A DNA stretch of 41,742 nt from a virus (taxonomy: Duplodnaviria > Heunggongvirae > Uroviricota > Caudoviricetes): the IMG/VR virus record IMGVR_UViG_2541047836_000006. One strand, 5' to 3'. The notes below the pieces were generated by a model. It was not told the origin of the DNA. It saw only the letters and a program-made list of their open reading frames with translations, and made no database searches. Each line of letters begins with the position of its first letter. Within the stretch, counting starts at the first letter, position 1. This document shows, piece after piece, positions 1 through 18,255 of the stretch. Position numbers and translations under genes: made by a program.

Positions 1-1143
1 CTATGCTGTTTTGATATCTACGATAACCCAGTCTTTACCACGATCATCATTGTATCGGTCGGTCATTTTTCTGGATTTATGGCCTAACAACTTTTGCGTA
101 TCCAGACCCTGTTCCCGATATAACCGTTCTGACAGAGATCGCTGCTCATGAAATGTGGGCGCAGTTCCTTGCTCCCATTTTATGCCACATTTTTCCCTGG
201 CCTTTTTAAAAGCCGTTGTCAGAGTATTTGCAGAAACCTGGTCTCCTCTGTTTGCTTGAGAGGTAGTGTGACGGTAATGGACCAGATATTTACTAACAAC
301 AGCATCCCTGCACTGAGATATAACTTCACGAAGGGTAATATTCAGAGCATCGCATTTCAGGTTAAGCGGAATAGCAAGTTTTGAACCGGTTTTTTCCTGA
401 GTAATGTGCAACATGTCGTCCCAGATATCAGAGAATTTCAAATTGCAGATATCACCTAAACGTTGTCCAGTAACAAGAGCAAGTAGCATGCCGCATTTTA
501 AATAGGGCTGCCGTCTGCTTACGCTTTCAAATATTGCCTGCCATTCGGGCAGTGACAATCTTTGGCGGTTTACTCGATTTCGCGGTTGTTTTGTTGCCTG
601 CGCTGGGTTAAATCCTGGCGGAACATGTCCTGCGTGTTGTGCTTCTTTGAAGACGTCGATCAACACCATTCTCACGACTTGCGCCATCCTGTTATGACCT
701 TCAGCCTTTACAGCATCAATTATTTCGGCAATATCAAGTGCGGTAATATCCTTGAGGTGTTGCATTCCACAATGCTCACGGAAAAGACGAATGGGTTTGC
801 CTTTTTGCCGATAGGAGTTGGGTCTTAGTTCATTATGTTGCAGCCTGTCCTCCTGGATAGAAATATATTTATCAAGCCATTCTGTCACCGTAATTTCTGA
901 GCGCCTGCCTTTCATTCTTTCCAGACGCTCATTGACGCTTAATATTTGTCGGGTACGTTGTTCAGCAATAATGGTATTTGCTTCAGTAGCAACTTGTTTT
1001 GCTTCATTCTCATCAGTTCCTAAGCTATGAAAACGACCGGATAGTGGATGTTTGTATTGCCAATATACCTTTCCGGTTCGCTTATCTAATTTGCAATATA
1101 AATTGGGTATAGAGATTTTGTGAGATCGGGGTCTAGCAGCCAT
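1..1143 (-). CDS. int: Phage tyrosine integrase (lambda-family, not lambda Int itself)
   Basis: 380-aa ORF; C-terminal catalytic region (…TFHEQRSLSERLYREQG…LLGHKSRKMTDRYNDDRG…) typical of tyrosine recombinases; sits at prophage left end next to xis; start overlaps xis stop. Confidence 0.9.
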   Translation of the reverse strand: MAARPRSHKISIPNLYCKLDKRTGKVYWQYKHPLSGRFHSLGTDENEAKQVATEANTIIAEQRTRQILSVNERLERMKGRRSEITVTEWLDKYISIQEDRLQHNELRPNSYRQKGKPIRLFREHCGMQHLKDITALDIAEIIDAVKAEGHNRMAQVVRMVLIDVFKEAQHAGHVPPGFNPAQATKQPRNRVNRQRLSLPEWQAIFESVSRRQPYLKCGMLLALVTGQRLGDICNLKFSDIWDDMLHITQEKTGSKLAIPLNLKCDALNITLREVISQCRDAVVSKYLVHYRHTTSQANRGDQVSANTLTTAFKKAREKCGIKWEQGTAPTFHEQRSLSERLYREQGLDTQKLLGHKSRKMTDRYNDDRGKDWVIVDIKTA

Positions 1144-1369
1144 CAGCGATTATCCGTTGGAGTTTTGGGTTTGCGTTTATTGGGAGTTGCGGTTCTGCAA
1201 GCGTTCCTACAAAACGGGAATTTCGGTCAATCATCCAGTAGCGACCAACTTTTATAGCGGGTGGGGCCATCATTTTCCCTTGCGCGTATTTTTTCAGAAC
1301 TCGCTCACTTGGTGCTAAGTCCCCAAATTCTTCTTTAGCCCAGTCCTGTAAAGTGATTAGTCGAGACAT
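1133..1369 (-). CDS. xis: Excisionase (Xis/AlpA-like)
   Basis: 78-aa ORF immediately upstream of int; N-terminus MSRLITLQDWAKE resembles lambda Xis MYLTLQEWNAR; strong SD (AGGAGG) upstream of ATG at 1367-1369. Confidence 0.75.
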   Translation of the reverse strand: MSRLITLQDWAKEEFGDLAPSERVLKKYAQGKMMAPPAIKVGRYWMIDRNSRFVGTLAEPQLPINANPKLQRIIADGC

Positions 1370-1508
1370 TTGTCCTCCTCTTAGCTGCTGAGGGAGTTTG
1401 TGACCGATATATCTGACATGATATTAAGCTCATGGCAGGTACATCTCTTGACTGGTCATAGAGATAAATTTAATGCTGAGAAATGCAGTATTGAATTTAT
1501 CAATTTTT

Positions 1509-1748
1509 CTATTTCCTGCGTATGGCACGTAACTTCTTAATGTGTTCTGCCGTTTCGATCTCTTCTGCTATCCGATCTGCATCAGCTTTATTCACAGGTT
1601 CAAAGTCATGATTAAAGCGGAACATGCTGGCGATACATGTTCTGCCTTTTCGGATGTAGTGAACTTTGTTGTAGGTAGAACGCAGGATTTTGCAGGGAGT
1701 GCCGTGGTGGTCGACGTACCAGGTGTTAGGAAAAATGATTCTGAGCAT
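1509..1748 (-). CDS. Hypothetical early-left protein (occupies the position of lambda ea22/ea8.5)
   Basis: 79-aa ORF with SD GAGGTG 6 nt before ATG; no recognisable motif. Confidence 0.5.
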   Translation of the reverse strand: MLRIIFPNTWYVDHHGTPCKILRSTYNKVHYIRKGRTCIASMFRFNHDFEPVNKADADRIAEEIETAEHIKKLRAIRRK

Positions 1749-1795
1749 TTTTACACCTCAGTTGGACGATGTTGAAATTTGCTGCTTTGAGGCCA

Positions 1796-2014
1796 TCACA
1801 ATCCCCATTGTTTGTTCTTAAGTTCGATCTCCTCCTGGCAACTTGCACAAGTCCGACAACCCTGAACGACCAGGCGTCTTCGCTCATCTATCGGATCGCC
1901 ACACTCACAACAATGAGTGGCAGATACAGTCTGGTAGTTCAGACGACGCATTTTTATTGCTGTATTGCGCTGTAATTCTTCGATTTCTGATGCTGAATCA
2001 ATGATGTCTGCCAT
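1796..2014 (-). CDS. TraR/DksA-family C4 zinc-finger protein (lambda orf61-like)
   Basis: 72-aa ORF with CxxC…CxxC (…HCCECGDPIDERRRLVVQGCRTCASCQ…); DNA matches remembered lambda region upstream of exo. Confidence 0.7.
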   Translation of the reverse strand: MADIIDSASEIEELQRNTAIKMRRLNYQTVSATHCCECGDPIDERRRLVVQGCRTCASCQEEIELKNKQWGL

Positions 2015-2112
2015 CTTCCATTAATCCCTGAATTGTTGGTTAATACGCTTGAGGGTGAATGCGAATAATAAAAAAGGAGCCTGTAGCTCCCTGATGATTT
2101 TGCTTTTCATGT

Positions 2113-2412
2113 TCATCGCTCCTTAAAGACGCCGTTTAACATGCCGATCGCCAGGCTTAAATGAGTCGGTGTGAATCCCATCAGCGTTACCGTTTCGCGG
2201 TGCTTCTTCAGTACGCTACGGCAAATGTCATCGACGTTTTTATCCGGAAACTGCTGTCTGGCTTTTTTGATTTCAGAGTTAGCTTGACGGGCAATGCTGC
2301 GAAGGGCGTTTTTCTGCTGAGGTGTCACTGAACAAGCCCCATGCCGGAAAGCATAAGCACACAGAATATGAAGCCCGCCGCCAGAAAAATGCATTCTGTT
2401 GTTGTCATGCAA
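2113..2412 (-). CDS. Hypothetical lambda early-left protein (orf60a-region homolog); start uncertain
   Basis: ORF in track begins with TTG; alternative ATG at 2394 or GTG further in; DNA closely resembles lambda exo-proximal region. Confidence 0.4.
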   Translation of the reverse strand: MHDNNRMHFSGGGLHILCAYAFRHGACSVTPQQKNALRSIARQANSEIKKARQQFPDKNVDDICRSVLKKHRETVTLMGFTPTHLSLAIGMLNGVFKER

Positions 2413-2596
2413 GCTCTCTCTCGTTTGCCTCTGCTTTCGCCGCCATCATTTCCAGCTTTTGTGAAAGGGATGCGGCTAACGTATGAAATTCTTCGTCTGT
2501 TTCTGCTGGTATTGGCACAAACCTGACTCCAATTTGAGCAAGGCTATGTGCCATCTCAATGCTCGTTCTTAACTCAACAGGAGATGCTTTGTGCAT
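2405..2596 (-). CDS. Hypothetical lambda early-left protein (orf63-like)
   Basis: 63-aa ORF with ATG at 2594-2596; DNA matches lambda region just before exo. Confidence 0.55.
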   Translation of the reverse strand: MHKASPVELRTSIEMAHSLAQIGVRFVPIPAETDEEFHTLAASLSQKLEMMAAKAEANERELA

Positions 2597-2747
2597 ACAG
2601 CCCCTCGTTTATTATTTATCTCCTCAGCCAGCCGCTGGGCTTTCAGTGGATTTTGGATAACAGAAAGGCCGGGAAATACCCAGCCTCGCTTTGTAACGGA
2701 GTAGACGAAAGTGATCGCGCCTACCCGGATATTATCGTGAGGATGCG

Positions 2748-3428
2748 TCATCGCCATTGCTCCCCAAATACAAAACCAATTTCAGCCAGTGCCTCGTCCA
2801 TTTTTTCGATGAACTCCGGCACCATCTCGTCAAAACTCGCCATGTACTTTTCATCCCGCTCAACCACGACATAATGCAGTCCTTCACGCTTCATACGCGG
2901 GTCATAGTTGGCAAAGTACCAGGCATCTTTTCGTGTCACCCACATGCTGTACTGCACCTGGGCCATGTAAGCCGACTTTATGGCCTCGAAACCACCGAGC
3001 CGGAACTTCATGAAATCCCGGGAGGTAAACGGGCATTTCAGCTCAAGGCCATTGCCGTCACTGCATAAACCATCGGGAGAGCAGGCGGTGCGCATACTTT
3101 CGTCGCGATAGATGATCGGGGATTCAGTAACATTCACGCCGGAAGTGAATTCAAACAGAGTTCTGGCGTCGTTCTCGTACTGTTTTCCCCAGGCCAGCGC
3201 CTTAGCATTAACTTCCGGAGCCACACCGGTGCAAACCTCAGCCAGCAGGGTGTGGAAGTAGGACATTTTCATGTCAGGCCACTTCTTTCCTGAGCGGGGC
3301 TTTGCTATCACGTTGTGAACTTGTGAAGCGGTGATGACGCCGAGCCGTAATTTGTGCCACGCATCATCTCCCTGCTCGATAGCTCTCACGTCGATCCCGG
3401 TACGCTGCAGGATAATGTCCGGTGTCAT
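2748..3428 (-). CDS. exo: Lambda exonuclease (Red alpha)
   Basis: 226-aa protein [30 protein letters not shown]… essentially identical to remembered lambda Exo; ATGA overlap with bet. Confidence 0.97.
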
Positions 3429-4210
3429 GCTGCCACCTTCTGTTCAGTGGCTTTTTGTTTCAGGAATCCAAGAGCTTTCACTGCTTCGTCCTGTGTCAGT
3501 TCTGACGATGCACGAATGTCGCGGCGAAATATCTGGGAACAGAGCGGCAATAAGTCGTCATCCCATGTTTTATCCAGGGCGATCAGCAGAGTGTTAATCT
3601 CCTGCATGGTTTCATCGTTAACCGGAGTGATGTCGCGTTCCGGCTGACGTTCTGCAGTGTATGCGGTATTTTCGACAATGCGCTCGGCTTCATCCTTGTC
3701 ATAGATACCAGCAAATCCGAAGGCGAGACGGGCACACTGAATCATGGCTTTATGCCGTAACATCCGTTTGGGATGCGACTGCCACGGCCCCGTGATTTCT
3801 CTGCCTTCGCGAGTTTTGAATGGTTCGCGGCGGCATTCATCCATCCATTCGGTAACGCAGATCGGATGATTACGGTCCTTGCGGTAAATCCGGCATGTAC
3901 AGGATTCATTGTCCTGCTCAAAGTCCATGCCATCAAACTGCTGGTTTTCATTGATGATGCGGGACCAGCCATCAACGCCCACCACCGGAACGATGCCGTT
4001 CTGCTTATCAGGGAAGGCGTAAATTTCTTTCGTCCACGGATTAAGGCCGTACTGGTTGGCGACGATCAACAATGCGATGAACTGCGCATCGCTGGCATCA
4101 CCTTTAAATGCCGTCTGGCGAAGAGTGGTGATCAGTTCCTGTGGGTCGACAGAATCCATGCCGACACGTTCAGCCAGCTTCCCTGCCAGCGTTGCGAGTG
4201 CTGTACTCAT
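3425..4210 (-). CDS. bet: Bet single-strand annealing protein (Red beta)
   Basis: 261-aa protein [37 protein letters not shown]… matches lambda Bet. Confidence 0.97.
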
Positions 4211-4215
4211 CCGTT

Positions 4216-4632
4216 TTATACCTCTGAATCAATATCAACCTGGTGGTGAGCAATGGTTTCAACCATGTACCGGATGTGTTCTGCCATGCGCTCCTGAAAC
4301 TCAACATCGTCATCAAACGCACGGGTAATGGCTTTTTTGCTGGCCCCGTGGCGTTGCAAATGATCGATGCATAGCGATTCAAACAGGTGCTGGGGCAGGC
4401 CTTTTTCCATGTCGTCTGCCAGTTCTGCCTCTTTCTCTTCACGGGCGATCTGCTGGTAGTGACGCGCCCAGCTCTGAGCCTCAAGACGATCCTGAATGTA
4501 ATAAGCGTTCATGGCTGAACTCCTGAAATAGCTGTGAAAATATCGCCCGCGAAATGCCGGGCTGATTAGGAAAACAGGAAAGGGGGTTAGTGAATGCTTT
4601 TGCTTGATCTCAGTTTCAGTATTAATATCCAT
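4216..4632 (-). CDS. gam: Gam, RecBCD inhibitor
   Basis: 138-aa protein [61 protein letters not shown]… matches lambda Gam. Confidence 0.95.
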
Positions 4633-4730
4633 TTTTTATAAGCGTCGACGGCCTCACGAAACATCTTTTCATCGCCAATAAAAGTGGCGATAGTGAATTT
4701 AGTCTGGATAGCCATAAGTGTTTGATCCAT
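4587..4730 (-). CDS. kil: Kil (host cell-division inhibitor)
   Basis: 47-aa protein [47 protein letters not shown] from internal ATG (4728-4730) of the 89-aa track ORF; matches lambda Kil. Confidence 0.85.
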
Positions 4731-4863
4731 TTTTTGGGACTCCTGGCTGATTAAGTATGTCGATAAGGCGTTTCCATCCGTCACGTAATTTACGGGTGAT
4801 TCGTTCAAGTAAAGATTCGGAAGGGCAGCCAGCAACAGGCCACCCTGCAATGGCATATTGCAT
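4699..4863 (-). CDS. cIII: cIII (FtsH/HflB inhibitor, stabilises cII)
   Basis: Hand translation of minus strand from ATG at 4861-4863 gives [54 protein letters not shown] (54 aa), matching lambda cIII; absent from the ORF track because it is under 60 aa. Confidence 0.85.
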   Translation of the reverse strand: MQYAIAGWPVAGCPSESLLERITRKLRDGWKRLIDILNQPGVPKNGSNTYGYPD

Positions 4864-4935
4864 GGTGTGCTCCTTATTTATACATAACGAAAAACGCCTC
4901 GAGTGAAGCGTTATTGGTATGCGGTAACGCCGCGC

Positions 4936-5304
4936 TCAGGCGGCTTTGATAGTCATATCATCTGAATCAAATATTCCTGATGTATCGATATCGGTAATTC
5001 TTATTCCTTCGCTACCATCCATTGGAGGCCATCCTTCCTGACCATTTCCATCATTCCAGTCGAACTCACACACAACACCATATGCATTTAAGTCGCTTGA
5101 AATTGCTATAAGCAGAGCATGTTGCGCCAGCATGATTAATACAGCATTTAATACAGAGCCGTGTTTATTGAGTCGGTATTCAGAGTCTGACCAGAAATTA
5201 TTAATCTGGTGAAGTTTTTCCTCTGTCATTACGTCATGGTCGATTTCAATTTCTATTGATGCTTTCCAGTCGTAATCAATGATGTATTTTTTGATGTTTG
5301 ACAT
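4936..5304 (-). CDS. ea10: Ea10 (lambda Ssb-like early protein)
   Basis: 122-aa ORF at the lambda ea10 position; length and sequence consistent with lambda Ea10. Confidence 0.8.
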   Translation of the reverse strand: MSNIKKYIIDYDWKASIEIEIDHDVMTEEKLHQINNFWSDSEYRLNKHGSVLNAVLIMLAQHALLIAISSDLNAYGVVCEFDWNDGNGQEGWPPMDGSEGIRITDIDTSGIFDSDDMTIKAA

Positions 5305-5320
5305 CTATTCATATCCTCAC

Positions 5321-5350
5321 AGATAAAAAATCGCCCTCACATTGGAGGGC
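5321..5350 (-). terminator. Rho-independent terminator in the leftward (pL) operon, upstream of ea10
   Basis: Minus-strand hairpin GCCCTCCAATGTGAGGGC followed by a T-run (plus strand: aaaaaatcGCCCTCacattgGAGGGC). Confidence 0.6.
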
Positions 5351-5564
5351 AAAGAAGATTTCCAATAATCAGAACAAGTCGGCTCCTGTTTAGTTACGAG
5401 CGACATTGCTCAGTGTATTCACTCGTTGGAATGAATACACAGTGCAGTGTTTATTAGTATGCCTGTCTTTTAACCACATCAGGCTCGGTGGTTCTCGTGT
5501 ACCCCTACAGCGAGAAATCGGATAAACTCTATTCACCCCTACAGAGAGCAAAAGAGAAACGCCG

Positions 5565-6146
5565 ATGAACAACTCATGGTGGCAGGAACTAATGCATTTT
5601 TTCCTGCAAGGAATGACACTTAAACAGTTGATTCATATGCTAATCATCCTGATCATATTGATTATTGTTATGCCTGTAAGCGTAAAAGAATGGATAAACC
5701 TGCATAATCCAGAAATCCTTCCTCATTACTGGATGTATTACATCCTGTTGTTTTGCGTTAGCTATGTGCTTAACGGCGTTGTTAATTCCGCTTATCACGC
5801 TGTGACTGTAAGAATTGAGATATTCGCTGCTCAGAAGCGCAAATCTAAAGAAGAGAAATACGTGCAAGATTTGTTTGATTCGTTAACTCTTGGAGAAAGA
5901 GCGTATTTGGCATTCGCTGTAGCCGCTAATAACCAGCTAAAGACAGAAAAGGGAAGCCCTGAAGCAATCTCATTGCTCGAAAAAGGGCTTCTTATTCGGG
6001 TACCTTCTGCTACTGGATATCCTGAAATCGACCGTTTTGTTATCCCGGAACGCTATAGAAATGAGTGCTACATTAGGTTTGCTGGGAAGAAAGACAGTCT
6101 TATGGATGAACTTATCGCTCAGGATAAGCATGGCAAAAACAAGTAA
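5565..6146 (+). CDS. sieB: Superinfection exclusion protein B (P22-type SieB)
   Basis: 193-aa membrane protein MNNSWWQELMHFFLQGMTLKQLIHMLIILIILIIVMPVSVKEW… resembles P22 SieB rather than lambda SieB; same position as lambda sieB. Confidence 0.85.
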   Translation: MNNSWWQELMHFFLQGMTLKQLIHMLIILIILIIVMPVSVKEWINLHNPEILPHYWMYYILLFCVSYVLNGVVNSAYHAVTVRIEIFAAQKRKSKEEKYVQDLFDSLTLGERAYLAFAVAANNQLKTEKGSPEAISLLEKGLLIRVPSATGYPEIDRFVIPERYRNECYIRFAGKKDSLMDELIAQDKHGKNK

Positions 6147-6162
6147 TTAGCAAATGAATTTA

Positions 6163-6471
6163 TCATCTCGCCGTCAGTTGTTTTGATTTCCGGTAGCCTG
6201 CCGCGTAAATAGCTACGTTTGGCAGGCAAACACTTCCACTGCATTCATCTACTTTCTTGCAGCGAAGGCTTCCGAGTGATATTGCTTTTTCAGAAAGGCT
6301 TAACCGCTTTCTCGGGTCTTCCTGAACAGGTTCCTCACTGTCTGTGCCGAAGATCGAATCGATGATGTTGCAGATGGAATCACGCTCGATGGCCAGCTTT
6401 CTGCGCCGCTCATGACGGCGAGTTTTGGCATTTCCTGCAAATGTTGATTTTCCGTACACGATTACCGTCAT
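6163..6471 (-). CDS. N: N-type transcription antiterminator (P22 gene 24-like)
   Basis: Arginine-rich motif GNAKTRRHERRRKLAIERD matching the P22 N boxB-binding peptide; likely start is internal ATG at 6469-6471 (MTVIVYGKSTFAGNAK…) with SD GAGGA; cognate nutL lies upstream. Confidence 0.8.
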   Translation of the reverse strand: MTVIVYGKSTFAGNAKTRRHERRRKLAIERDSICNIIDSIFGTDSEEPVQEDPRKRLSLSEKAISLGSLRCKKVDECSGSVCLPNVAIYAAGYRKSKQLTAR

Positions 6472-6589
6472 GATGTTTTCCTCATGTGAAATGGCTTTGG
6501 TGGTGATGCGCCAGATGCTGATCTTCTGGTTGCTGTCGTTACTGCTGCAATTCACATCACCCCAAACCCATCTCGTTTGGTATCTGTTC

Positions 6590-6623
6590 GCGCTTTGTCA
6601 GCGCATCATCGAAGTTAAAGAGC
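6590..6623 (-). promoter_or_regulatory. nutL: nutL site (boxA-like GCTCTTTAAC and boxB hairpin GCGCTGACAAAGCGC)
   Basis: Minus-strand boxB at 6590-6604 is identical to the P22 nutL boxB RNA; boxA-like element at 6614-6623 lies 5' of boxB in the transcript. Confidence 0.7.
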
Positions 6624-6659
6624 CTGCCAATCTGTTCCGTTTGGCTGCCAGCGTCCTGC

Positions 6660-6720
6660 TGATGGCGATTATAATGAACCAATAGTTCGATATTATCAAG
6701 AACTATAAGTACGAATTGTT
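6660..6720 (-). promoter_or_regulatory. Putative pL promoter/OL operator region
   Basis: Minus-strand TATAAT at 6668-6673 with an imperfect -35 (TTGATA, 20-nt spacer); AGTACG half-site at 6708-6713 shared with the OR palindrome; location inferred from the nutL/N arrangement. Confidence 0.3.
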
Positions 6721-6880
6721 TGTGGTTCATTAACTTAATGAGATATGTTTTTGATATGTAAAGGAATTTATTTTTGTAAAGATTGAAGATTGGTCAGTAG
6801 GAGAGAAAGAATTGTTTGCTGGCGTGTTAGTTCGTGGGTTAGCACATGTGCGGATGTTAAATAAGGTAGACGATCGTGAG

Positions 6881-6908
6881 GAAAAGAAAAACCGGCGCTG
6901 AGGCCGGG
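6881..6908 (-). terminator. Rho-independent terminator ending the cI accessory-gene transcript (tIMM-like)
   Basis: Minus-strand hairpin CCGGC…GCCGG (6892-6907) followed by a T-rich run, 6 nt downstream of the stop of the 6914..7813 gene. Confidence 0.6.
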
Positions 6909-6913
6909 TATAA

Positions 6914-7813
6914 TTATTTGATTATTTCTTTTATAAAGACTTCTTTCGGTTGGTATTTTTTATCTGATGATTTGAGCTGGTACGTTATTGTTATATCAGC
7001 ACGTACAGAAAATTTACCTGCAAAATCTGATGGGTTTACGTTGGGGCCAAGAACCATATTTACTCTTCGATCTATTAATCCAGGGATAACAGCAGCCCAA
7101 CCTTTCTCTGGATTGTCGAGGTCTAATGCACGGATTTCAACATCAACATCAAAATGATCCTGAGTATATGACTCTGGTGTGAAGACAACTTCAGTTGGGG
7201 CTTTTTTAATGGTTTCAGCGGGAATGGTCACTGTACCACCCCCTGTACCTATGACCATCGTAGATCCTTCGTCTGCCCTAGCTGGGGCAAGCGTCTTAAT
7301 GGAACTTTTGGCAAGAGTCTTCTTATTGGTTACCGTGCTTTCTATGATTGCTTGAAGACGGTCAGGTGAAATATTAGCCTCACCGGCACCAATATTGATG
7401 ATTGTATTGTTATTTGCTTCAAAGTGGGAGGTGTTGCTTGGAGCCATAGCCTTAGTTGCTAGAACTAAGCCATATCCAACCAGACCAATAACAACAGCAC
7501 CAACGAGAGCGTTTCTCATTTTCCCATTTCCGATCTTTGCATGAGCGCCAGCAAGAAACTTGTCCATTTCTTCTTGGCTACCAAAGAGGAGTTTAATAAC
7601 AATATCTTCATAAAGGCTTCCTGCTTCTAATCGCGCAACATGCACCGATATATCAAGGATATTAGCCCCTGTCAGTTCCTGCAAAACACCTTCTGATTGT
7701 TTTGCGATGGCCTCCCACCCTTGAAGGGAGGTAATCACATCTTTGATGCTTACAGGTTCTTTAGTTGAATAATATATGTTTTCGGTAAAGGTTAAAGATA
7801 ATTCTTGGGACAT
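6914..7813 (-). CDS. Uncharacterised single-pass membrane protein in the immunity-region accessory slot (rexAB position); candidate superinfection-exclusion/abortive-infection protein
   Basis: 299-aa ORF with SD GAGGG upstream of ATG (7811-7813); central hydrophobic helix ALVGAVVIGLVGYGLVLATKAMA; co-oriented with and downstream of cI; own terminator; AT-rich; no similarity to any protein I recognise. Confidence 0.8.
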   Translation of the reverse strand: MSQELSLTFTENIYYSTKEPVSIKDVITSLQGWEAIAKQSEGVLQELTGANILDISVHVARLEAGSLYEDIVIKLLFGSQEEMDKFLAGAHAKIGNGKMRNALVGAVVIGLVGYGLVLATKAMAPSNTSHFEANNNTIINIGAGEANISPDRLQAIIESTVTNKKTLAKSSIKTLAPARADEGSTMVIGTGGGTVTIPAETIKKAPTEVVFTPESYTQDHFDVDVEIRALDLDNPEKGWAAVIPGLIDRRVNMVLGPNVNPSDFAGKFSVRADITITYQLKSSDKKYQPKEVFIKEIIK

Positions 7814-7942
7814 CCGAGCCCTCGCTGTTTCTTTCGATTTGCTGTGTTAAGCTAATATTTTAATATCCATGTTTCTGTTTGCTTGCAGTGTGTTTCTCAC
7901 CACCATCCAAACGTACTGGTTACTAGCTATGTGATGATGAAG

Positions 7943-8650
7943 TCATGAACTTTTCAGCCATTCCCTGGCCTCGATGTCATCTAGGTGGCGAGATTGCTTC
8001 AGAATACCAGCTACATACTCCACCTTTGCTACTTGATGATAAGGCAACGTTATTGGCCTGTGGTCTTGGTTGATGCTTGTAAATTGGTATTCTCCGTCTC
8101 TGTCATAGCCAAGAACCTTGATCATGTTGTGCCCTTCAATGGTTCTGACAAACACCTCATCACCTGGGAATACTTTGGTGTTAGGCTCAATGAGTACATA
8201 TTCTCCTGATTTTATTCTGGGCCACATGCTGTCTCCTTTTACACGAAGACCAAAGGCATCTGGATCATCGCTATAAATCTTGAGCCACCCATCGCGCTCT
8301 TCGGTCATCTCGATGGCACCATCAACACCAAGAATTGCCTCACCAACCACGCGCACTAACCCTTTTTTTAATTTGCCAACAATTGAAAAAGTATCTTCAT
8401 CATTCGCTCCATTTAACGAAGTGCCGTGCTGAAGCCAAACAACATCAACGTTTAGAAATTTCGCAAGCGCATTCATTTTTTCCTGGCGTGGTAAAGACTC
8501 AGCATTAAACCATTTGCTAACGCCTTTGGACGAAAGAGAAAGGGCACGGGCTATGGCCATTCCCCTACCATGTTCATCAAGACCAGCTTCTTTACAGGCT
8601 TGCGCTAGCCGCTGGGCGAATTCTTTGCGCACTTTTTCATTCTGAACCAT
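7943..8650 (-). CDS. cI: CI-type prophage repressor (HTH N-domain plus LexA/S24-like self-cleaving C-domain)
   Basis: 235-aa ORF divergent from cro; C-terminal …FGLRVKGDSMWPRIKSGEYVLIEP… carries the S24 peptidase Ser/Lys pattern (GDSM…K); not the lambda or P22 repressor sequence. Confidence 0.9.
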   Translation of the reverse strand: MVQNEKVRKEFAQRLAQACKEAGLDEHGRGMAIARALSLSSKGVSKWFNAESLPRQEKMNALAKFLNVDVVWLQHGTSLNGANDEDTFSIVGKLKKGLVRVVGEAILGVDGAIEMTEERDGWLKIYSDDPDAFGLRVKGDSMWPRIKSGEYVLIEPNTKVFPGDEVFVRTIEGHNMIKVLGYDRDGEYQFTSINQDHRPITLPYHQVAKVEYVAGILKQSRHLDDIEAREWLKSS

Positions 8651-8728
8651 GAGTACGATACTAAAGCACTTGCAAAAACTTTCAGTTCAACCATAATGCG
8701 TACTGAAAGTACGAAAAAGGACATTCCT
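8651..8728. promoter_or_regulatory. OR/pR-pRM divergent control region with operator-like palindrome
   Basis: Candidate pR -35 TTGCAA (8670-8675) and -10 CATAAT (8692-8697); palindrome CGTACTGAAAGTACG at 8699-8713; inverted repeat ACTTTCAGT/ACTGAAAGT; extra AGTACG half-site at 8652-8657. Confidence 0.5.
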
Positions 8729-8956
8729 ATGCAAAATCTTGATGAGCCGATTAAAGGTGTCGGCATCCCTGAAGTTGCGAAGGCTTGTGGAGTTAGCGAA
8801 AGGGCTGTCTATAAGTGGCTCAAAAACGGCTTCCTCCCTAAGACTGAGTTTTTTGGGAAAACGAAATACGCATCAAAAATCGAAGAGATTTCTGGTGGCA
8901 AATATCAAGCAAGCGAAATGCTTGAAATAAGCAAAAAGAACCTTCTGGCAGCATAA
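8729..8956 (+). CDS. cro: Cro-like HTH regulator
   Basis: 75-aa product from ATG at 8729 (SD AAAAAGG 8 nt upstream); HTH motif GIPEVAKACGVSERAVYKW; first gene rightward of the OR region. Confidence 0.8.
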   Translation: MQNLDEPIKGVGIPEVAKACGVSERAVYKWLKNGFLPKTEFFGKTKYASKIEEISGGKYQASEMLEISKKNLLAA

Positions 8957-8963
8957 GTAACAC

Positions 8964-8998
8964 CGCTCTTTATCAATCTGCACCGCCGACAACGCGGT
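8964..8998 (+). promoter_or_regulatory. nutR: nutR site (boxA CGCTCTTTA and boxB hairpin ACCGCCGACAACGCGGT)
   Basis: boxA consensus at 8964-8972; boxB stem-loop at 8982-8998 matches the P22 nutR boxB. Confidence 0.7.
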
Positions 8999-9062
8999 AA
9001 CTAATTAAGAACTCATCGAAAGATGCGTATTAGTGATTATTTACCTATGGAAATAGTAAGAA

Positions 9063-9362
9063 ATGGAACAAACAAATTACAGCAAACTATCACAGCGCGA
9101 CGTTGATCGCGCAGAAACAGATTTACTTATCAACCTGTCAACGCTTACTCAGCGCGGTCTGGCAAAGATGATTGGCTGTCATGAATCGAAGATAAGCAGA
9201 ACAGACTGGAGGTTTATAGCTTCGGTCTTGTGTGCTTTTGGCATGGCATCAGACATCAGTCCGATTAGCAGAGCTTTTAAGTATGCGCTTGATGAAATCA
9301 CCAATAAAAAACGCCCGGTGTGCAAGACCGAGCGTTCTGAACAAATCCAGATGGAGTTCTGA
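9063..9362 (+). CDS. cII: cII transcriptional activator
   Basis: 99-aa protein ending …TNKKRPVCKTERSEQIQMEF, matching the lambda CII C-terminus; located between cro and O. Confidence 0.9.
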   Translation: MEQTNYSKLSQRDVDRAETDLLINLSTLTQRGLAKMIGCHESKISRTDWRFIASVLCAFGMASDISPISRAFKYALDEITNKKRPVCKTERSEQIQMEF

Positions 9363-9383
9363 GGTCATTACTGGATCTATCAA
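9307..9383 (-). ncRNA. oop: oop antisense RNA (position inferred from lambda)
   Basis: cII 3' end and cII-O intergenic DNA match lambda, where the 77-nt oop RNA is leftward and overlaps the cII 3' end; coordinates transferred by offset, not verified. Confidence 0.4.
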
Positions 9384-9394
9384 CAGGAGTCATT

Positions 9395-10294
9395 ATGACA
9401 AATACAGCAAAAATACTCAACTTCGGCAGAGGTAACTTTGCCGGACAGGAGCGTAATGTGGCAGATCTCGATGATGGTTACGCCAGACTATCAAATATGC
9501 TGCTTGAGGCTTATTCGGGCGCAGATCTGACCAAGCGACAGTTTAAAGTGCTGCTTGCCATTCTGCGTAAAACCTATGGGTGGAATAAACCAATGGACAG
9601 AATCACCGATTCTCAACTTAGCGAGATTACAAAGTTACCTGTCAAACGGTGCAATGAAGCCAAGTTAGAACTCGTCAGAATGAATATTATCAAGCAGCAA
9701 GGCGGCATGTTTGGACCAAACAAAAACATCTCAGAATGGTGCATCCCTCAAAACGAGGGAAAATCCCCTAAAACGAGGGATAAAACATCCCTCAAATTGG
9801 GGGATTGCTATCCCTCAAAACAGGGGGACACAAAAGACACTATTACAAAAGAAAAAAGAAAAGATTATTCGTCCGAGAATTCTGGCGAATCCTCTGACCA
9901 GCCAGAAAACGATCTTTCTGTGGTTAAACCGGATGCTGCAATTCAGAGCGGCAGTAAGTGGGGAACAGCAGAAGACCTGACCGCCGCAGAGTGGATGTTT
10001 GACATGGTGAAGACCATCGCGCCATCAGCCAGAAAACCGAATTTTGCTGGGTGGGCTAACGATATCCGCCTGATGCGTGAACGTGACGGACGTAACCACC
10101 GCGATATGTGTGTGCTTTTCCGCTGGGCCTGCCAGGACAACTTCTGGTCCGGTAACGTGCTGAGTCCGGCCAAACTCCGCGACAAGTGGACCCAGCTCGA
10201 AATCAACCGTAACAAGCAACAGGCTGGCGTGACAGCCGGAAAACCAAAACTCGACCTGACAAACACTGACTGGATTTACGGGGTGGATCTATGA
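9395..10294 (+). CDS. O: Replication initiator O
   Basis: 299-aa protein MTNTAKILNFGRGNFAGQERNVADLDDGYARLSNMLLEAY… matches lambda O; contains the ori iterons. Confidence 0.95.
   Translation: MTNTAKILNFGRGNFAGQERNVADLDDGYARLSNMLLEAYSGADLTKRQFKVLLAILRKTYGWNKPMDRITDSQLSEITKLPVKRCNEAKLELVRMNIIKQQGGMFGPNKNISEWCIPQNEGKSPKTRDKTSLKLGDCYPSKQGDTKDTITKEKRKDYSSENSGESSDQPENDLSVVKPDAAIQSGSKWGTAEDLTAAEWMFDMVKTIAPSARKPNFAGWANDIRLMRERDGRNHRDMCVLFRWACQDNFWSGNVLSPAKLRDKWTQLEINRNKQQAGVTAGKPKLDLTNTDWIYGVDL
9743..9828 (+). repeat. ori-lambda iterons (four ~18-bp direct repeats, O-binding sites) followed by an AT-rich region
   Basis: ATCCCTCAAAACGAGGGA / TCCCCTAAAACGAGGGA / ATCCCTCAAATTGGGGGA / ATCCCTCAAAACAGGGGGA inside the O coding sequence, followed by aaaagaaaaaagaaaag. 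Confidence 0.85.
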
Positions 10295-10992
10295 AAAACA
10301 TCGCCGCACAGATGGTTAACTTTGACCGTGAGCAGATGCGTCGGATCGCCAACAACATGCCGGAACAGTACGACGAAAAGCCACAGGTACAGCAGGTAGC
10401 GCAGATCATCAACGGTGTGTTCAGCCAGTTACTGGCAACTTTCCCGGCGAGCCTGGCTAACCGTGACCAGAACGAACTGAACGAAATCCGCCGCCAGTGG
10501 GTTCTGGCTTTCCGGGAAAACGGGATCACCACAATGGAACAGGTTAACGCAGGAATGCGCGTAGCCCGTCGGCAGAATCGACCATTTCTGCCATCACCCG
10601 GGCAGTTTGTTGCATGGTGCCGGGAAGAAGCATCCGTTATCGCCGGACTGCCAAACGTCAGCGAGCTGGTTGATATGGTTTACGAGTATTGCCGGAAGCG
10701 AGGCCTGTATCCGGATGCGGAGTCTTATCCGTGGAAATCAAATGCGCACTACTGGCTGGTTACCAACCTGTATCAGAACATGCGGGCCAATGCGCTTACT
10801 GATGCGGAATTACGCCGTAAGGCCGCAGATGAGCTTGTCCATATGACTGCGAGAATTAACCGTGGTGAGGCGATCCCTGAACCAGTAAAACAACTTCCTG
10901 TCATGGGCGGTAGACCTCTAAATCGTGCACAGGCTCTGGCGAAGATCGCAGAAATCAAAGCTAAGTTCGGACTGAAAGGAGCAAGTGTATGA
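10291..10992 (+). CDS. P: Replication protein P (DnaB helicase loader)
   Basis: 233-aa protein MKNIAAQMVNFDREQMRRIANNMPEQYDEKPQVQQ… matches lambda P; ATGA overlap with O. Confidence 0.95.
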   Translation: MKNIAAQMVNFDREQMRRIANNMPEQYDEKPQVQQVAQIINGVFSQLLATFPASLANRDQNELNEIRRQWVLAFRENGITTMEQVNAGMRVARRQNRPFLPSPGQFVAWCREEASVIAGLPNVSELVDMVYEYCRKRGLYPDAESYPWKSNAHYWLVTNLYQNMRANALTDAELRRKAADELVHMTARINRGEAIPEPVKQLPVMGGRPLNRAQALAKIAEIKAKFGLKGASV

Positions 10993-11279
10993 CGGGCAAA
11001 GAGGCAATTATTCATTACCTGGGGACGCATAATAGCTTCTGTGCGCCGGACGTTGCCGCGCTAACAGGCGCAACAGTAACCAGCATAAATCAGGCCGCGG
11101 CTAAAATGGCACGGGCAGGTCTTCTGGTTATCGAAGGTAAGGTCTGGCGAACGGTGTATTACCGGTTTGCTACCAGGGAAGAACGGGAAGGAAAGATGAG
11201 CACGAACCTGATTTTCAAGGAGTGTCGCCAGAGTGCCGCGATGAAACGGGTATTGGCGGTATATGGAGTTAAAAGATGA
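10989..11279 (+). CDS. ren: Ren (resistance to Rex exclusion)
   Basis: 96-aa protein MTGKEAIIHYLGTHNSFCAPDVAALTGATVTSINQAAAKMARAGLLVIEGK… matches lambda Ren. Confidence 0.9.
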   Translation: MTGKEAIIHYLGTHNSFCAPDVAALTGATVTSINQAAAKMARAGLLVIEGKVWRTVYYRFATREEREGKMSTNLIFKECRQSAAMKRVLAVYGVKR

Positions 11280-11352
11280 CCATCTACATTACTGAGCTAA
11301 TAACAGGCCTGCTGGTAATCGCAGGCCTTTTTATTTGGGGGAGAGGGAAGTC

Positions 11353-11793
11353 ATGAAAAAACTAACCTTTGAAATTCGATCTCCAGCACATCAGCAAAAC
11401 GCTATTCACGCAGTACAGCAAATCCTTCCAGACCCAACCAAACCAATCGTAGTAACCATTCAGGAACGCAACCGCAGCTTAGACCAAAACAGGAAGCTAT
11501 GGGCCTGCTTAGGTGACGTCTCTCGTCAGGTTGAATGGCATGGTCGCTGGCTGGATGCAGAAAGCTGGAAGTGTGTGTTTACCGCAGCATTAAAGCAGCA
11601 GGATGTTGTTCCTAACCTTGCCGGGAATGGCTTTGTGGTAATAGGCCAGTCAACCAGCAGGATGCGTGTAGGCGAATTTGCGGAGCTATTAGAGCTTATA
11701 CAGGCATTCGGTACAGAGCGTGGCGTTAAGTGGTCAGACGAAGCGAGACTGGCTCTGGAGTGGAAAGCGAGATGGGGAGATCGGGCTGCATGA
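11353..11793 (+). CDS. ninB: NinB (Orf-family recombination mediator)
   Basis: 146-aa protein MKKLTFEIRSPAHQQNAIHAVQQILPDP… matches lambda NinB; SD GGGAGAGGGAAG. Confidence 0.9.
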   Translation: MKKLTFEIRSPAHQQNAIHAVQQILPDPTKPIVVTIQERNRSLDQNRKLWACLGDVSRQVEWHGRWLDAESWKCVFTAALKQQDVVPNLAGNGFVVIGQSTSRMRVGEFAELLELIQAFGTERGVKWSDEARLALEWKARWGDRAA

Positions 11794-12317
11794 CTATCAA
11801 ATCAAATACGCCAGCACACGACAAGGACTGCTGGCAAACGCCGCTTTGGCTTTTTGATGCACTGGATATTGAGTTTGGATTCTGGCTGGATTCGGCAGCG
11901 AGCGACAAAAATGCTCTGTGTGCTCACTGGCTAACTGAGGCCGACGACGCGCTCAATTCTGAGTGGGTAAGCCACGGTGCAATCTGGAATAACCCACCGT
12001 ACAGCAATATCAGGCCGTGGGTGGAAAAAGCCGCTGAGCAGTGCATACAACAGCGACAGACGGTAGTTATGCTTGTGCCAGAGGATATGTCAGTCGGATG
12101 GTTCAGCAAGGCTCTGGAGAGTGTCGACGAAGTTCGCATTATCACTGATGGACGGATTAATTTTATCGAACCATCGACAGGGCTGGAGAAGAAGGGAAAC
12201 AGCAAAGGCTCCATGCTGCTGATTTGGCGACCGTTCATCAGTCCTCGACGGATGTTTACTACCGTATCCAAAGCGGCATTGATGGCGATCGGGCAGGGCG
12301 TCAGGAGGGCGGCATGA
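11790..12317 (+). CDS. Phage DNA N6-adenine methyltransferase (Dam-like, orphan)
   Basis: 175-aa product from ATG overlapping the ninB stop; catalytic motif NPPY (…[14 protein letters not shown]…); no adjacent restriction endonuclease. Confidence 0.8.
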
Positions 12318-12490
12318 GGCGACAGCGACGAAGTTTCACCGACATCATCTGCGAAAACTGCAAATACCTTCCAACGAAACGCTCCAGAAATAAACGCAAG
12401 CCAATCCCAAAAGAATCTGACGTAAAAACCTTCAATTACACAGCTCACCTGTGGGATATCCGGTGGCTAAGATATCGTGCGAGGAAATGA
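12314..12490 (+). CDS. ninE: NinE
   Basis: 58-aa product [58 protein letters not shown] matching lambda NinE; ATGA overlap with methyltransferase stop. Confidence 0.85.
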
Positions 12491-12834
12491 CAATGGATTA
12501 TTCACAGTTAAGTGATTTTGAAATTAACAGAATGGTAGGAGACATAATTTTTAAAGGCCTTTGGGCAAGTAAACCGGAAACATCAGGGAATAACACCAAC
12601 AAATGGTATTACGGAAATGCTGATACAACTTTTGAGCCATTAAATCATTTGCCTGACTACTGCAATGATCCGAGCGCTTCATGGCCGATTATTGAGAAAT
12701 ACAGGATTTCTATCTTAGACCAGTTAACTGAATGGTGTGTGGATGCAAAAGGCGTAAGCCCAATATTTGATACCAGACCTCTCCGCGCCGCCATTATTGT
12801 CTTTCTCCTGATGCAGGAGGCCAATAATGCTTAG
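12487..12834 (+). CDS. Hypothetical nin-region protein
   Basis: 115-aa product from ATG at 12487 ([19 protein letters not shown]…), overlapping the ninE stop; no recognised motif. Confidence 0.55.
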
Positions 12835-13021
12835 CCCATCTCAATCCCTTCAATACCTGAAAGGAAGCATAGAGCGGGCTTCAATGTGCACAGAGTGGAT
12901 TCTATCTAGGTTTAGCGCATACAGAAGATTGCCGGTAAAGGGCATGCCAAGCAAGTCGATGCTGCATATGCAAAAGAATGCGCGCGGGAAGGTATGGCGA
13001 GAACGCAGGTTATCTGGCTGA
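12827..13021 (+). CDS. NinF-like N-terminus fused to divergent sequence (possible mosaic or frameshifted remnant)
   Basis: First ~20 aa [21 protein letters not shown] resemble lambda Nin[22 protein letters not shown], then diverge; a different frame (12916-13044) encodes …[28 protein letters not shown], resembling a DLP12 YbcO-family C-terminus. Confidence 0.35.
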
Positions 13022-13040
13022 AAGAGGGGGTAATTAAGGC

Positions 13041-13403
13041 GTGAATACTTACCACATCACACTACCCTGGCCTCCGAGCAATAATCGCTATTATCGCCAT
13101 AATCGCGGGCGCACGCACGTCAGCGCAGAGGGGCAGGCATACCGCGATAACGTCGCCCGAATCATTAAAAACGCAATGCTGGATATCGGCCTGGCGATGC
13201 CTGTGAAAATCCGCATTGAGTGCCACATGCCGGATCGCCGTCGCCGTGACCTGGATAATCTGCAAAAAGCCGCTTTTGACGCACTCACCAAAGCAGGTTT
13301 CTGGCTGGATGATGCTCAGGTCGTTGATTACCGCGTTGTGAAGATGCCTGTTACCAAAGGTGGGAGGCTGGAATTGACCATCACCGAAATGGGGAATGAA
13401 TGA
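13041..13403 (+). CDS. rusA: RusA Holliday-junction resolvase
   Basis: 120-aa protein [50 protein letters not shown]… near-identical to remembered DLP12 RusA; GTG start. Confidence 0.95.
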
Positions 13404-13540
13404 TGTTTGAGTTTTATATGGCAGAACGTCTTCGCCACCGCTGGGTGCGTCTGCGCTTATATCGTTTCCCCGGTTCTGTTTTGACCGATTACCGAATACT
13501 GAAGAATTACGCCAAAACACTGACAGGAGCAGGAGTATGA
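13400..13540 (+). CDS. ylcG: Small protein YlcG-like
   Basis: 46-aa [49 protein letters not shown] overlapping the rusA stop; matches remembered DLP12 ylcG; below the ORF-track cutoff. Confidence 0.7.
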
Positions 13541-13625
13541 AGTCAGAGATAACAATCAACTAATACTGTTTTGCTGATTTTTGCTTGTAATTGGCGTTCT
13601 GGTCTGATTTTTGTGGAGTAAGTTG

Positions 13626-14003
13626 ATGCGTGATATTCAGATGGTTCTTGAGCGTTGGGGAGCGTGGGCGGCTAATAATCATGAAGATGTGACCTGGTCG
13701 TCCATTGCCGCCGGTTTTAAGGGATTAATTCCTTCAAAAGTAAAATCTCGCCCGCAATGTTGTGACGATGACGCGATGATCATTTGCGGGTGCATGGCCC
13801 GTCTGAAAAATAACAACAGCGATTTGCATGATTTGTTAGTGGACTATTATGTCGGCGGCATGACTTTTATGGCGCTTGCGCGTAAGCATGGTAGATCTGA
13901 TTGTTGGATTGGCAGGATGCTCCAAAAAGCTGAGGGCGTAGTGGAGGGCATGCTGATGGTGTTGGATCTCAGATTGGAGATGGATGCTGATTGTTTGAGA
14001 TAA
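13626..14003 (+). CDS. Q: Late-gene antiterminator Q (QuuD/phage-21-type)
   Basis: 125-aa product from ATG at 13626 (SD GGAGTAAG); [33 protein letters not shown]… with Cys-rich zinc motif ([14 protein letters not shown]); matches remembered DLP12 QuuD. Confidence 0.85.
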
Positions 14004-14102
14004 TTAAAGGAAAAGTTGCTGTCTGGTTATCATTAGACTAATGTTTCAAATGTTAGAATCGCAACGTAGTTATGATCATATAACAGCTTGTTCCCTGATT
14101 TA

Positions 14103-14131
14103 GCCAGCCTCCCCAAAGGCTGGTTTTTTTT
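14103..14131 (+). terminator. Rho-independent terminator downstream of Q (tR'-like)
   Basis: Hairpin CCAGCC-tccccaaa-GGCTGG followed by TTTTTTTT (14124-14131). Confidence 0.65.
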
Positions 14132-14159
14132 CTAATAAGTATCAATCCGGTTAGGTATT

Positions 14160-14684: not shown

Positions 14685-14876
14685 AATATATCCTGTACTT
14701 TTGATAGTTGAGAGTAAGTATTAAAGATAGATGATTACTACCGATCACCTAAAGAACTTTCCTACTATATTAGGAATAGTCCATAACAAAAAAATTGTCA
14801 GTGATGACGGCAGAAAGGCAGTTTAGGTCGTGTACTACACTGTTAACCTGTTAATGAATTAGTCAAGGGGTAGGCA

Positions 14877-16886: not shown

Positions 16887-17053
16887 CGTGATGCGTTTTG
16901 ATGATTTTGTAATTTTCATATTTGATGATTATATGATGCTTTCAGCTACGCCAGAATAATCGCTGGCGTTTTTCTTTTCTAATGTAACTTCTGTATCTTT
17001 CCCTCTTTCATTCCAAACCGTGTACACCATCCGTTATTCGCGGAGGTGAGGCT

Positions 17054-18224: not shown

Positions 18225-18227
18225 AGC

Positions 18228-18245: not shown

Positions 18246-18255
18246 ACTCATGCAA

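Follow-up and report, generated by a model that had tools for sequence, protein, structure and literature searches.

The viral record IMGVR_UViG_2541047836_000006 (Caudoviricetes), a DNA stretch of 41,742 nt that is referred to as the window in the following, carries a 299-amino-acid (aa) open reading frame (ORF) directly behind its cI repressor gene. We favor the reading that this ORF encodes a lysogen-expressed anti-phage protein, with a probability of roughly 0.55. The sequence is already public and the gene is labeled hypothetical; new is the evidence that it belongs to a large, coherent, repressor-linked family without a known fold. The gene is in allelic exchange with known defense cargo, and its family is directionally linked to repressors across distant bacteria. 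As judged from the sequence, it is likely promoterless accessory cargo of the prophage repressor operon. The coordinates of all features are listed in Table 1.

Genomic locus of the ORF

The order of elements in the immunity region is pRM/oR, cI, the ORF, a terminator, oL/pL, N and, on the opposite strand, sieB. The same order is found in lambda, with rexA-rexB where the ORF stands. An earlier sequence-only reading of the window had described a minus-strand ORF of 299 aa with a GAGGG Shine-Dalgarno sequence and a 129-bp upstream spacer, located in the rexAB slot directly downstream of and co-oriented with cI. The ORF list and the sequence agree with this description. The upstream gene product matches HTH_3 and Peptidase_S24 (E 3.5e-16), the ORF lies between cI and oL/pL in place of the stk cassette of phage 933W, and members of its family are directionally linked to cI-like repressors (see below). 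The intrinsic terminator claimed 6 nt behind the stop codon was likewise seen: in the terminator scan and in the sequence, the hairpin CCGGCCTCAGCGCCGG with its T-run begins 6 nt past the TAA, with the stem at 6907..6892. The ORF is thus co-oriented with the repressor gene and placed between it and oL/pL, with no terminator in between and a terminator behind.

Both flanks resemble phage 933W. The oR operators are exact 933W matches (8643-8657, 8675-8689 and 8699-8713), and the promoter scan found pR-like hexamers at 8670-8697 on the plus strand. On the far side of the ORF, an operator search tolerating 3-4 mismatches found two operator-like sites that overlap a minus-strand promoter. They are read as putative oL and pL and lie in a stretch homologous to the tM-nutL interval of 933W.

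Neither a sigma-70-like promoter nor a terminator-like site was found in the 129-bp spacer by the promoter and terminator scan, and the spacer RNA folds no better than shuffled sequences (z = 0.32). The suggestion that the spacer could hold a promoter of its own was rejected: it has no sigma-70-like site, and only about 10-60 nt 5' of the ATG move together with the gene. Because no terminator or promoter separates cI from the ORF and the terminator behind the ORF is homologous to tM, annotated in 933W as the terminator of the pM (cI) transcript, pRM probably drives transcription of the gene together with cI in the lysogen, up to the shared terminator tM. The region had also appeared AT-rich by eye. 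For the ORF this is correct relative to the whole window (41.2% versus 50.7% G+C), but it is not specific to the ORF: the G+C content is similarly low in cI (45.3%), in sieB (40.0%) and in the entire stretch 4400-9800 (42.9%), and is therefore a property of the immunity region.

The slot behind cI as a site of cargo exchange

The edges of the cassette were defined by a blastn comparison with 933W. Window positions 7915-10000 match 933W 12047-14200 (cI, cro, cII, O), and positions 6651-6908 match 933W 9678-9936, the interval that holds tM. Between the same breakpoints, 933W carries 2110 bp with a DUF3024 gene, a RuvC-like gene, stk and a 54-aa ORF. The 933W Stk protein matches the PADLOC models PD-T4-6 (E 1e-37) and mad6 (6.7e-50), and the DUF3024 protein matches the PADLOC candidate PDC-S43. 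In 2011, Stk was reportedly found by Friedman et al. to exclude HK97. Two E. coli strains with the same cI type have yet other contents in the slot, namely a serine protease of the SDH family with Clp fold and no PADLOC match in 30EVA2, and a 180-aa gene together with a DUF1828 gene (PADLOC candidate PDC-M24B) in 19AR0254. The slot behind cI is a swap site, and its identifiable occupants are defense genes or defense candidates. It is also the place where phage exclusion was first studied (rex), and most of its cargo is still unannotated.

The protease gene lies at 2333-3334 (minus) of locus L090, and the pair of the 180-aa gene and the DUF1828 gene at 2097-3403 (minus) of locus L091; these genes are further candidates in the slot.

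Genomic contexts of the family members

To characterize the genomic neighborhood of the family, 83 homolog loci were grouped into 41 clusters at 90% protein identity, and the neighboring genes were screened with an iterated profile seeded by the cI of the window. Of 38 clusters, 18 have a co-oriented cI-like or helix-turn-helix (HTH) gene of at least 100 aa among the three genes upstream, and in 11 it is the immediate upstream neighbor. Downstream, no cI-like gene was found at position +1 (0/41 clusters), +2 (0/39) or +3 (0/39). The repressor linkage spans Gammaproteobacteria, Betaproteobacteria and a Desulfuromonadales genome, and the repressors vary. In Pectobacterium, the homolog sits behind a different, short repressor (Pfam and record annotation); in Pseudomonas, behind a 370-aa repressor with two HTH domains and S24. 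In Pseudomonas phage vB_Pae_U9, the order is repressor, two small genes, homolog.

Within the cluster of the window's own protein (proteins at least 94% identical), the gene is found behind six different repressors. The DNA common to these loci starts 10-60 nt 5' of the ATG (window 7822..7875) and ends shortly behind the terminator stem (6880..6887). These limits imply that the mobile unit consists of a short leader, the ORF and the terminator, without a promoter.

A linkage of this kind could also mean that the protein regulates the lysogeny switch of its own prophage: it would sense signals at the envelope, pass them across the membrane to the repressor or to induction, and be functionally tied to cI. 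The strong directional association with varied cI-like repressors and the conserved cytoplasmic N-terminal domain (see below) would fit such a role. However, no repressor is close by in about half of the family clusters, which are located amid head, lysis or satellite genes, sometimes on the opposite strand, and identical cargo serves six unrelated repressors. A regulatory partnership with cI is for these reasons very unlikely; moreover, the slot is swapped for unrelated cargo without loss of the immunity function.

The contexts without a repressor are diverse. Homologs were found between a Q antiterminator and a holin gene, between DUF968/antirepressor genes and an endolysin gene (on the opposite strand), and after an Rz-like DUF2514 gene. 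One adjoins the Mu F and portal genes and is encoded on the other strand, and another is located between a 282-aa gene and the Mu protease gene. Further homologs are encoded near a gpD-like baseplate hub gene (possibly a P2-like phage), in one locus near an integrase gene, on a satellite-like element with AlpA and a P4-alpha-type primase, directly after an HSDR_N-like and a PD-Lambda-3_B-like gene (E 2.8e-14), beside DUF499/DUF1156 genes, and once beside the housekeeping gene for phosphoenolpyruvate carboxylase. The Mu-like head-module context raised the possibility of a phage structural protein; it was rejected, since the second Mu-like locus has the opposite strand to F/portal and the family is elsewhere found in regulatory and lysis regions. 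None of the neighboring ORFs of the gathered loci recurs throughout the different contexts, and the protein therefore most likely functions on its own or together with components of the host.

Two of these neighborhoods contain additional genes. At 5363-8903 of locus L024, a small HTH gene, a 385-aa HSDR_N-like gene, a 263-aa Hypoth_Ymh/PD-Lambda-3_B-like gene and the family member form a row. Similar rows occur in L080 and L086; the small HTH gene is present in L024 and L086, and in L080 the 385-/263-aa pair recurs beside a family member of a different 90% cluster. This arrangement could reflect a functional association or a small defense island. In the Serratia element with AlpA and the P4-alpha-type primase (L005 8194-12909), the homolog is followed by three large co-oriented genes (847, 598 and at least 824 aa). 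No Pfam match is recorded for any of the three, and PADLOC gave none for the 847- and 598-aa proteins; the genes may represent an uncharacterized system.

Protein family and conservation

The ORF matches the function-unknown profile PHROG 4506 over its full length (E 1e-170, residues 1-299 versus profile positions 1-300 of 300), and only function-unknown PHROG families matched at E <= 0.1. Pfam gave no match above the curated cut-offs, NCBIfam gave no relevant match but only weak ones to other proteins, and PADLOC v2 (2023, including the PDC candidate families) gave none at E <= 1. For 35 diverse family members, no meaningful match to Pfam or PADLOC was obtained. Weak Pfam matches to DUF1206 (E 0.007), Bromo_TP_like and DUF3082 are below the cut-offs, those to DUF1206 and DUF3082 cover the transmembrane segment, and all three are regarded as noise. 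A full-text literature search with the gene accessions (WP_000076840.1, A0A234Z8H0, YP_009909541, phrog_4506, FIG00644776) and the names of the carrier phages returned nothing on the gene.

The family is large. A word-index search yielded 56 homolog clusters with identities down to 29%, from Enterobacterales to Accumulibacter, and a profile search of 1.84 billion representatives returned 662 proteins (clustered at 50% identity) at E <= 1e-3, 286 of them at E <= 1e-30. Nearly all of the best 150 of these 662 matches are full-length proteins of about 300 aa. A search for domain fusions with the N-terminal domain as the sole profile query returned nothing but fragments of the same E. coli protein. 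Conserved positions were derived from 151 non-redundant members (median identity to the query 29%). They comprise L30, G65-S66 and F77 in the N-terminal domain, the motif NNxIINIGA (134-143), which is located about ten residues past the hydrophobic helix and is kept as 'nn.iiniga' in the set of 151, and, beyond the motif, P177-A178, P206, iRAxDlD (227-233), G238-W239 and R250. A G-E pair directly after ANNNTIINIGA is kept in closer relatives only.

The ORF encodes a real protein under strong constraint. Compared with orthologs of 77-95% nucleotide identity, the pairwise ratio of nonsynonymous to synonymous substitution rates (dN/dS) is 0.02-0.10 overall wherever dS was measurable, and it is comparably low in the N-terminal domain and in the linker, variable and barrel segments. 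The exception is the 25-codon transmembrane stretch, for which a short-segment estimate of 0.76 was obtained against the closest ortholog. At larger divergence, residues 181-299 gain amino acid changes 2-3 times faster than the N-terminal domain.

The hosts are Proteobacteria and Desulfuromonadales, ranging from Nitrosomonas to E. coli. The presence of soil and wastewater bacteria besides enteric ones counts against a role specific to virulence. It also bears on the possibility of a lysogenic-conversion gene unrelated to phages, which would encode an envelope protein that alters host fitness. It might, for instance, serve envelope homeostasis or stress tolerance, or confer resistance to bacteriocins, to contact-dependent toxins or to the entry of conjugative DNA. 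Accessory slots do hold non-defense cargo, and the window itself encodes a lipocalin, a RudS-like desulfidase and an AraC-family regulator; strong purifying selection without diversification and a predicted periplasm-exposed domain without a defense signature would also suit such a protein. However, the family occurs on lambdoid, Mu-like and possibly P2-like phages and on a satellite-like element, and its hosts extend from Nitrosomonas to E. coli. Such breadth suggests a need that all temperate elements share and not one of a single niche. As the gene is in addition allelic with defense cargo behind the same repressor, a conversion function is considered unlikely.

A distant homolog (locus L088; 32% identity over 54% of the query) is encoded at 10179-11177 of Leptolyngbya phage Lsp-JY19 (PP438411.1), which is reported from a cyanobacterium and has a DDE transposase. 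There, the homolog directly precedes the lysis genes. If the host assignment is right, the family reaches beyond Proteobacteria.

Predicted structure and membrane topology

An AlphaFold2 model built with the family alignment reached a mean predicted local distance difference test (pLDDT) score of 82.8 and a predicted template modeling (pTM) score of 0.68. It contains a beta-alpha-beta-beta-alpha domain (5-94), a long helix (101-123), short helices (125-179) and a beta-barrel-like domain (185-297). In the C-terminal region, block pLDDT values are mostly 79-92, with two dips to 65-68. The region had earlier been described as Ser/Thr/Gly-rich; it is not a low-complexity tract but is predicted to fold into a helical segment and a beta-barrel. 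Foldseek found nothing in the PDB at E <= 1e-3 (query-normalized TM-score <= 0.21), a profile search of PDB sequences gave a best E of at least 0.28, and a BFVD structure search returned a single match, an uncharacterized phage protein. The HMM and structure-based searches proposed in the sequence-only reading thus gave no confident match to a characterized family, non-defense families included (Pfam, PDB). As judged from alignment and model, the protein appears to be a new domain combination without a known relative or fold.

The single hydrophobic helix noted in the sequence, ALVGAVVIGLVGYGLVLAT at residues 101-123, is the only such segment in 195 of 197 full-length members. Averaged over these members, one hydrophobic segment is located at about 103-122 (mean 19-residue Kyte-Doolittle value 1.92), with a mean of 3.16 Lys/Arg in the 15 residues before the helix versus 1.13 after it. 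More of these charges are on the N-terminal side in 169 members, and the reverse holds in 9. From this positive-inside bias, and because a folded N-terminal domain of about 100 residues would be unlikely to undergo export in the absence of a signal peptide, we infer that the N-terminus is cytoplasmic and the C-terminus periplasmic. The prediction agrees with the earlier proposal of a single-pass membrane protein with a large extracytoplasmic C-terminal domain. The product would accordingly be a bitopic inner-membrane protein with an acidic alpha/beta domain of about 98 residues in the cytoplasm, one transmembrane helix and a periplasmic part of about 175 residues. The latter would comprise the NNxIINIGA juxtamembrane motif, a helical segment and a small beta-barrel with a RAxDLD...GW...R patch. 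Small residues are found in the helix at G104, G109, G112 and G114, and G115 is near-invariant in an alignment of closer relatives.

Comparison with known exclusion and defense systems

Lambda rexA-rexB occupies the corresponding site of the map: it follows cI and precedes oL/pL and N, and sieB is located on the far side of N. It shares the presumed co-transcription with cI in the lysogen, and rexB also encodes a membrane protein. The differences are that rex consists of two genes versus one here, and that RexB is a small polytopic protein, whereas the candidate has one predicted transmembrane helix with large soluble domains on both sides. The hhalign probabilities are 0.1% for RexA and 1.2% for RexB, and the RexA and RexB models of PADLOC do not match the ORF at E <= 1, although the lambda proteins match their own models at 9e-110 and 8.6e-61 (positive control). 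The stk cassette of 933W is allelic to the ORF and shares the cI immunity type, the sequence following cI and the terminator tM. It differs in that it comprises four cytoplasmic genes including a Ser/Thr kinase, versus a single predicted membrane protein here; the hhalign probability to the Stk/PD-T4-6 kinase is 0.1%, and neither PADLOC nor Pfam gave a kinase match to the ORF. SieB (PF14163) does not match the ORF, whereas it matches the neighboring gene at 5565-6146 (+). The earlier statement that the protein resembles no Rex, Sie or other named family was borne out by these profile and hhalign comparisons.

P22 SieA is a prophage-expressed single-gene inner-membrane protein that was proposed to hinder DNA delivery at the inner membrane; it has 162-164 aa, three predicted transmembrane segments and the motif FxRYPxEAxxFNK (PMC10883804). 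The candidate is, by prediction, also a single-gene inner-membrane protein, and the functional model proposed for it is similar. It differs from SieA in its length (299 aa), its one transmembrane helix, the absence of FxRYPxEAxxFNK and the lack of a PHROG or Pfam Sie family match. In P22, sieA lies in immI and not behind c2. Membrane-anchored proteins of the lactococcal Sie2009 type and Ltp of Streptococcus thermophilus, a lipoprotein, have an extracytoplasmic C-terminal domain and block DNA injection. Their genes adjoin the prophage repressor and are expressed in lysogens; the proteins have about 160-170 aa, no sizeable cytoplasmic N-terminal domain and Gram-positive hosts. By description, the candidate is like them in its predicted extracytoplasmic C-terminal domain and its repressor-adjacent gene, and is set apart by its greater length (299 aa), its sizeable predicted cytoplasmic N-terminal domain and its Gram-negative hosts.

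SNIPE (PD-lambda-1) is a single-gene, single-pass inner-membrane nuclease that acts where the phage genome enters and cleaves the DNA as it is injected, with a periplasmic N-terminus and cytoplasmic DUF4041 and GIY-YIG domains (PMC13190303). The candidate, although predicted to be single-gene and single-pass as well, is oriented the opposite way in the prediction and has no nuclease, DUF4041 or PADLOC match (Pfam and PADLOC searches with the 35 members). HepS (Gifsy-1) and SNIPE were rejected as relatives because of their unrelated architecture.

Proposed function

According to the favored reading, the protein would act alone, with no conserved partner gene, and shield the lysogen against infection by other phages. 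Carriers and hosts are varied, with nitrifiers and wastewater bacteria among the hosts, and this speaks for a function from which any temperate element would benefit; by analogy, defense against competing phages would be the best-precedented function of this kind. The likeliest site of action would be the envelope, at a step after adsorption and before phage DNA reaches the cytoplasm. An inner-membrane anchor that carries a large periplasmic domain would fit an entry block of the SieA or Sie2009/Ltp type, which as a specific mode of action is put forward only tentatively. A similarly speculative proposal is that the periplasmic beta-barrel senses incoming phage or envelope damage and the cytoplasmic domain relays the signal or executes the response. 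The protein might then be a transmembrane sensor-effector in one polypeptide, representing a new and widespread class of single-gene anti-phage proteins on temperate elements of Gram-negative bacteria, and its mechanism would be unlike those of Rex, Sie, Imm, SNIPE, Zorya or Kiwa and be combined with a previously undescribed fold.

An abortive-infection effector, which would sense infection by its cytoplasmic N-terminal or its periplasmic domain, oligomerize via the glycine-rich transmembrane helix, depolarize the membrane and kill or arrest the cell in a functionally RexB-like manner, is rather unlikely. Nevertheless, a sensing or abortive mechanism is a serious rival, since the cytoplasmic domain is the most conserved part of the protein and the gene occupies the rexAB/stk slot, whose occupants are abortive: Rex and Stk are abortive systems. 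The small-residue-rich helix would be suited to oligomerization, and one family member directly follows a PD-Lambda-3_B-like gene. PD-lambda-3 has been described as an abortive system (PMC13190303). Several results count against such an effector, namely the single transmembrane helix, the lack of a recognizable effector or sensor domain in the Pfam and structure searches, the low hhalign probabilities to RexB and RexA, the absence of a conserved partner gene, and a glycine-zipper pattern that is not kept across the wider family.

A number of points weigh against the anti-phage reading as such. No homolog has a known function, and the role is derived from context and prediction. Guilt by association in accessory slots also fits non-defense cargo such as bor, lom and stx. 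PADLOC v2 including its PDC models matches none of the 35 members, and WP_000076840.1 was found neither in the DefensePredictor supplements nor in the full-text literature searched. The domain-wise dN/dS values for close orthologs show purifying selection only and no diversifying selection, unlike the classic picture of an arms race. A simple periplasmic plug would not require that the cytoplasmic N-terminal domain be conserved equally strongly, and hydrophobicity and charge bias are the only basis of the topology. Finally, the neighboring ORFs were obtained with a simple greedy caller, so that positions -1 to -3 are approximate in high-G+C loci.

The gene is a suitable test case, being the sole cargo of a phage present in about 3% of complete E. 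coli genomes (150/5426) and a member of a family of at least 660 clusters at 50% identity that has no known domain or fold and is absent from PADLOC v2 (2023). If it encodes a defense protein, it represents a new family overlooked by current defense-finding tools and a simple single-gene system for studying inner-membrane events in phage entry. It could then also affect the host range of therapeutic phages in E. coli, Salmonella, Klebsiella and Pseudomonas. The directional repressor linkage is, furthermore, a usable search rule for more lysogen-expressed cargo.

Carrier phage and further features of the window

Bases 1-19306 of the window are 100% identical to the temperate coliphages Lambda_ev110, Lambda_2E9 and 1H12 (genus Jouyvirus), in whose records the gene is labeled 'hypothetical protein' (YP_009909541; RefSeq WP_000076840.1). 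Of 5426 complete E. coli genomes, 150 contain the 1062-bp region around the ORF at >=99% identity. A 933W-type cI was found in 615 of the 5426, and its >=99% allele in 151, matching the 150 cassette carriers. The SieB-family gene gives the phage at least one recognized exclusion gene besides the candidate.

Table 1 Features of the window (positions in nt unless stated otherwise)
Feature	Position	Strand	Remarks
Rfam Lambda_thermo (cIII thermoregulator element)	4818-4876	minus	88.5 bits; sole Rfam match in the window
SieB-family superinfection-exclusion gene	5565-6146	+	Pfam SieB (PF14163) E 3.2e-25; phrog_1301 E 2.4e-123; adjoins N as in lambda
N antiterminator, first pL-operon gene, far edge of the slot	6163..6471	minus	Pfam N_peptide E 1e-40; 102 aa in NC_049947
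oL-like operators and pL-like promoter (putative)	6671..6713	minus	operators 6675-6689, 6699-6713; promoter 6699..6671, TTGATA-17-CATTAT
Intrinsic terminator behind the ORF	6882..6907	minus	stem 6907..6892 and T-run; homologous to 933W tM
Cargo cassette, 1006 bp	6909..7914	minus	edges are the 933W homology breakpoints (blastn vs NC_000924)
299-aa ORF, function-unknown PHROG 4506 family	6914..7813	minus	ATG start; ORF list
Juxtamembrane-motif codons ANNNTIINIGA, residues 133-143	7385..7417	minus	invariant or near-invariant columns in the alignment of closer relatives
Transmembrane-helix codons (predicted), residues 101-123	7445..7513	minus	sole strongly hydrophobic segment
cI-to-ORF spacer, 129 bp	7814..7942	minus	promoter/terminator scan, RNA fold; 933W homology stops at 7915
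Shine-Dalgarno sequence GAGGG of the ORF	7819..7823	minus	5 nt 5' of the ATG; read from the sequence
cI repressor, 933W immunity type	7943..8650	minus	Pfam HTH_3 and Peptidase_S24; 97.5% identical to Stx-phage cI
oR3, oR2, oR1 with pR/pRM region	8643..8713	.	exact copies of the annotated 933W operators
Lipocalin gene	14160-14684	minus	accessory gene
RudS-like 2-thiouracil desulfurase and DUF1722 gene	14877-15836	+	accessory gene
AraC-family regulator gene	16146-16886	+	accessory gene
Predicted parts of the 299-aa protein	residues 1-98; 101-123; 124-180; 181-299		cytoplasmic N-terminal domain; transmembrane helix; periplasmic helical segment; beta-barrel

In the pL operon, the mechanical ORF of N (6163-6555, minus) has a GTG start and 130 aa, of which the N_peptide match spans residues 29-130; the public annotation has 102 aa. 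Two overlapping small ORFs in the pL-to-N leader, one of 57 aa on the minus strand (6557-6730) and one of 70 aa on the plus strand (about 6473-6685, publicly 'hypothetical'), overlap the region homologous to 933W pL/nutL at 6473-6730 and are probably not genes.

The cassette occupies 151 places in the E. coli genomes, two of them on plasmids, which suggests phage-plasmids or prophage fragments on plasmids. In E. coli EECO1006, the 299-aa gene is interrupted by IS1B (NZ_CP090319.1 2225171-2227009), and in a viral contig (locus L052 5498-6401) it is split into ORFs of 201 and 105 aa. The placement of the lipocalin, RudS-like and AraC-family genes between the Q region and the lysis genes is extrapolated from the map of phage 1H12, a phage that is mentioned in a publication on RudS tRNA desulfidases (PMC11417400).

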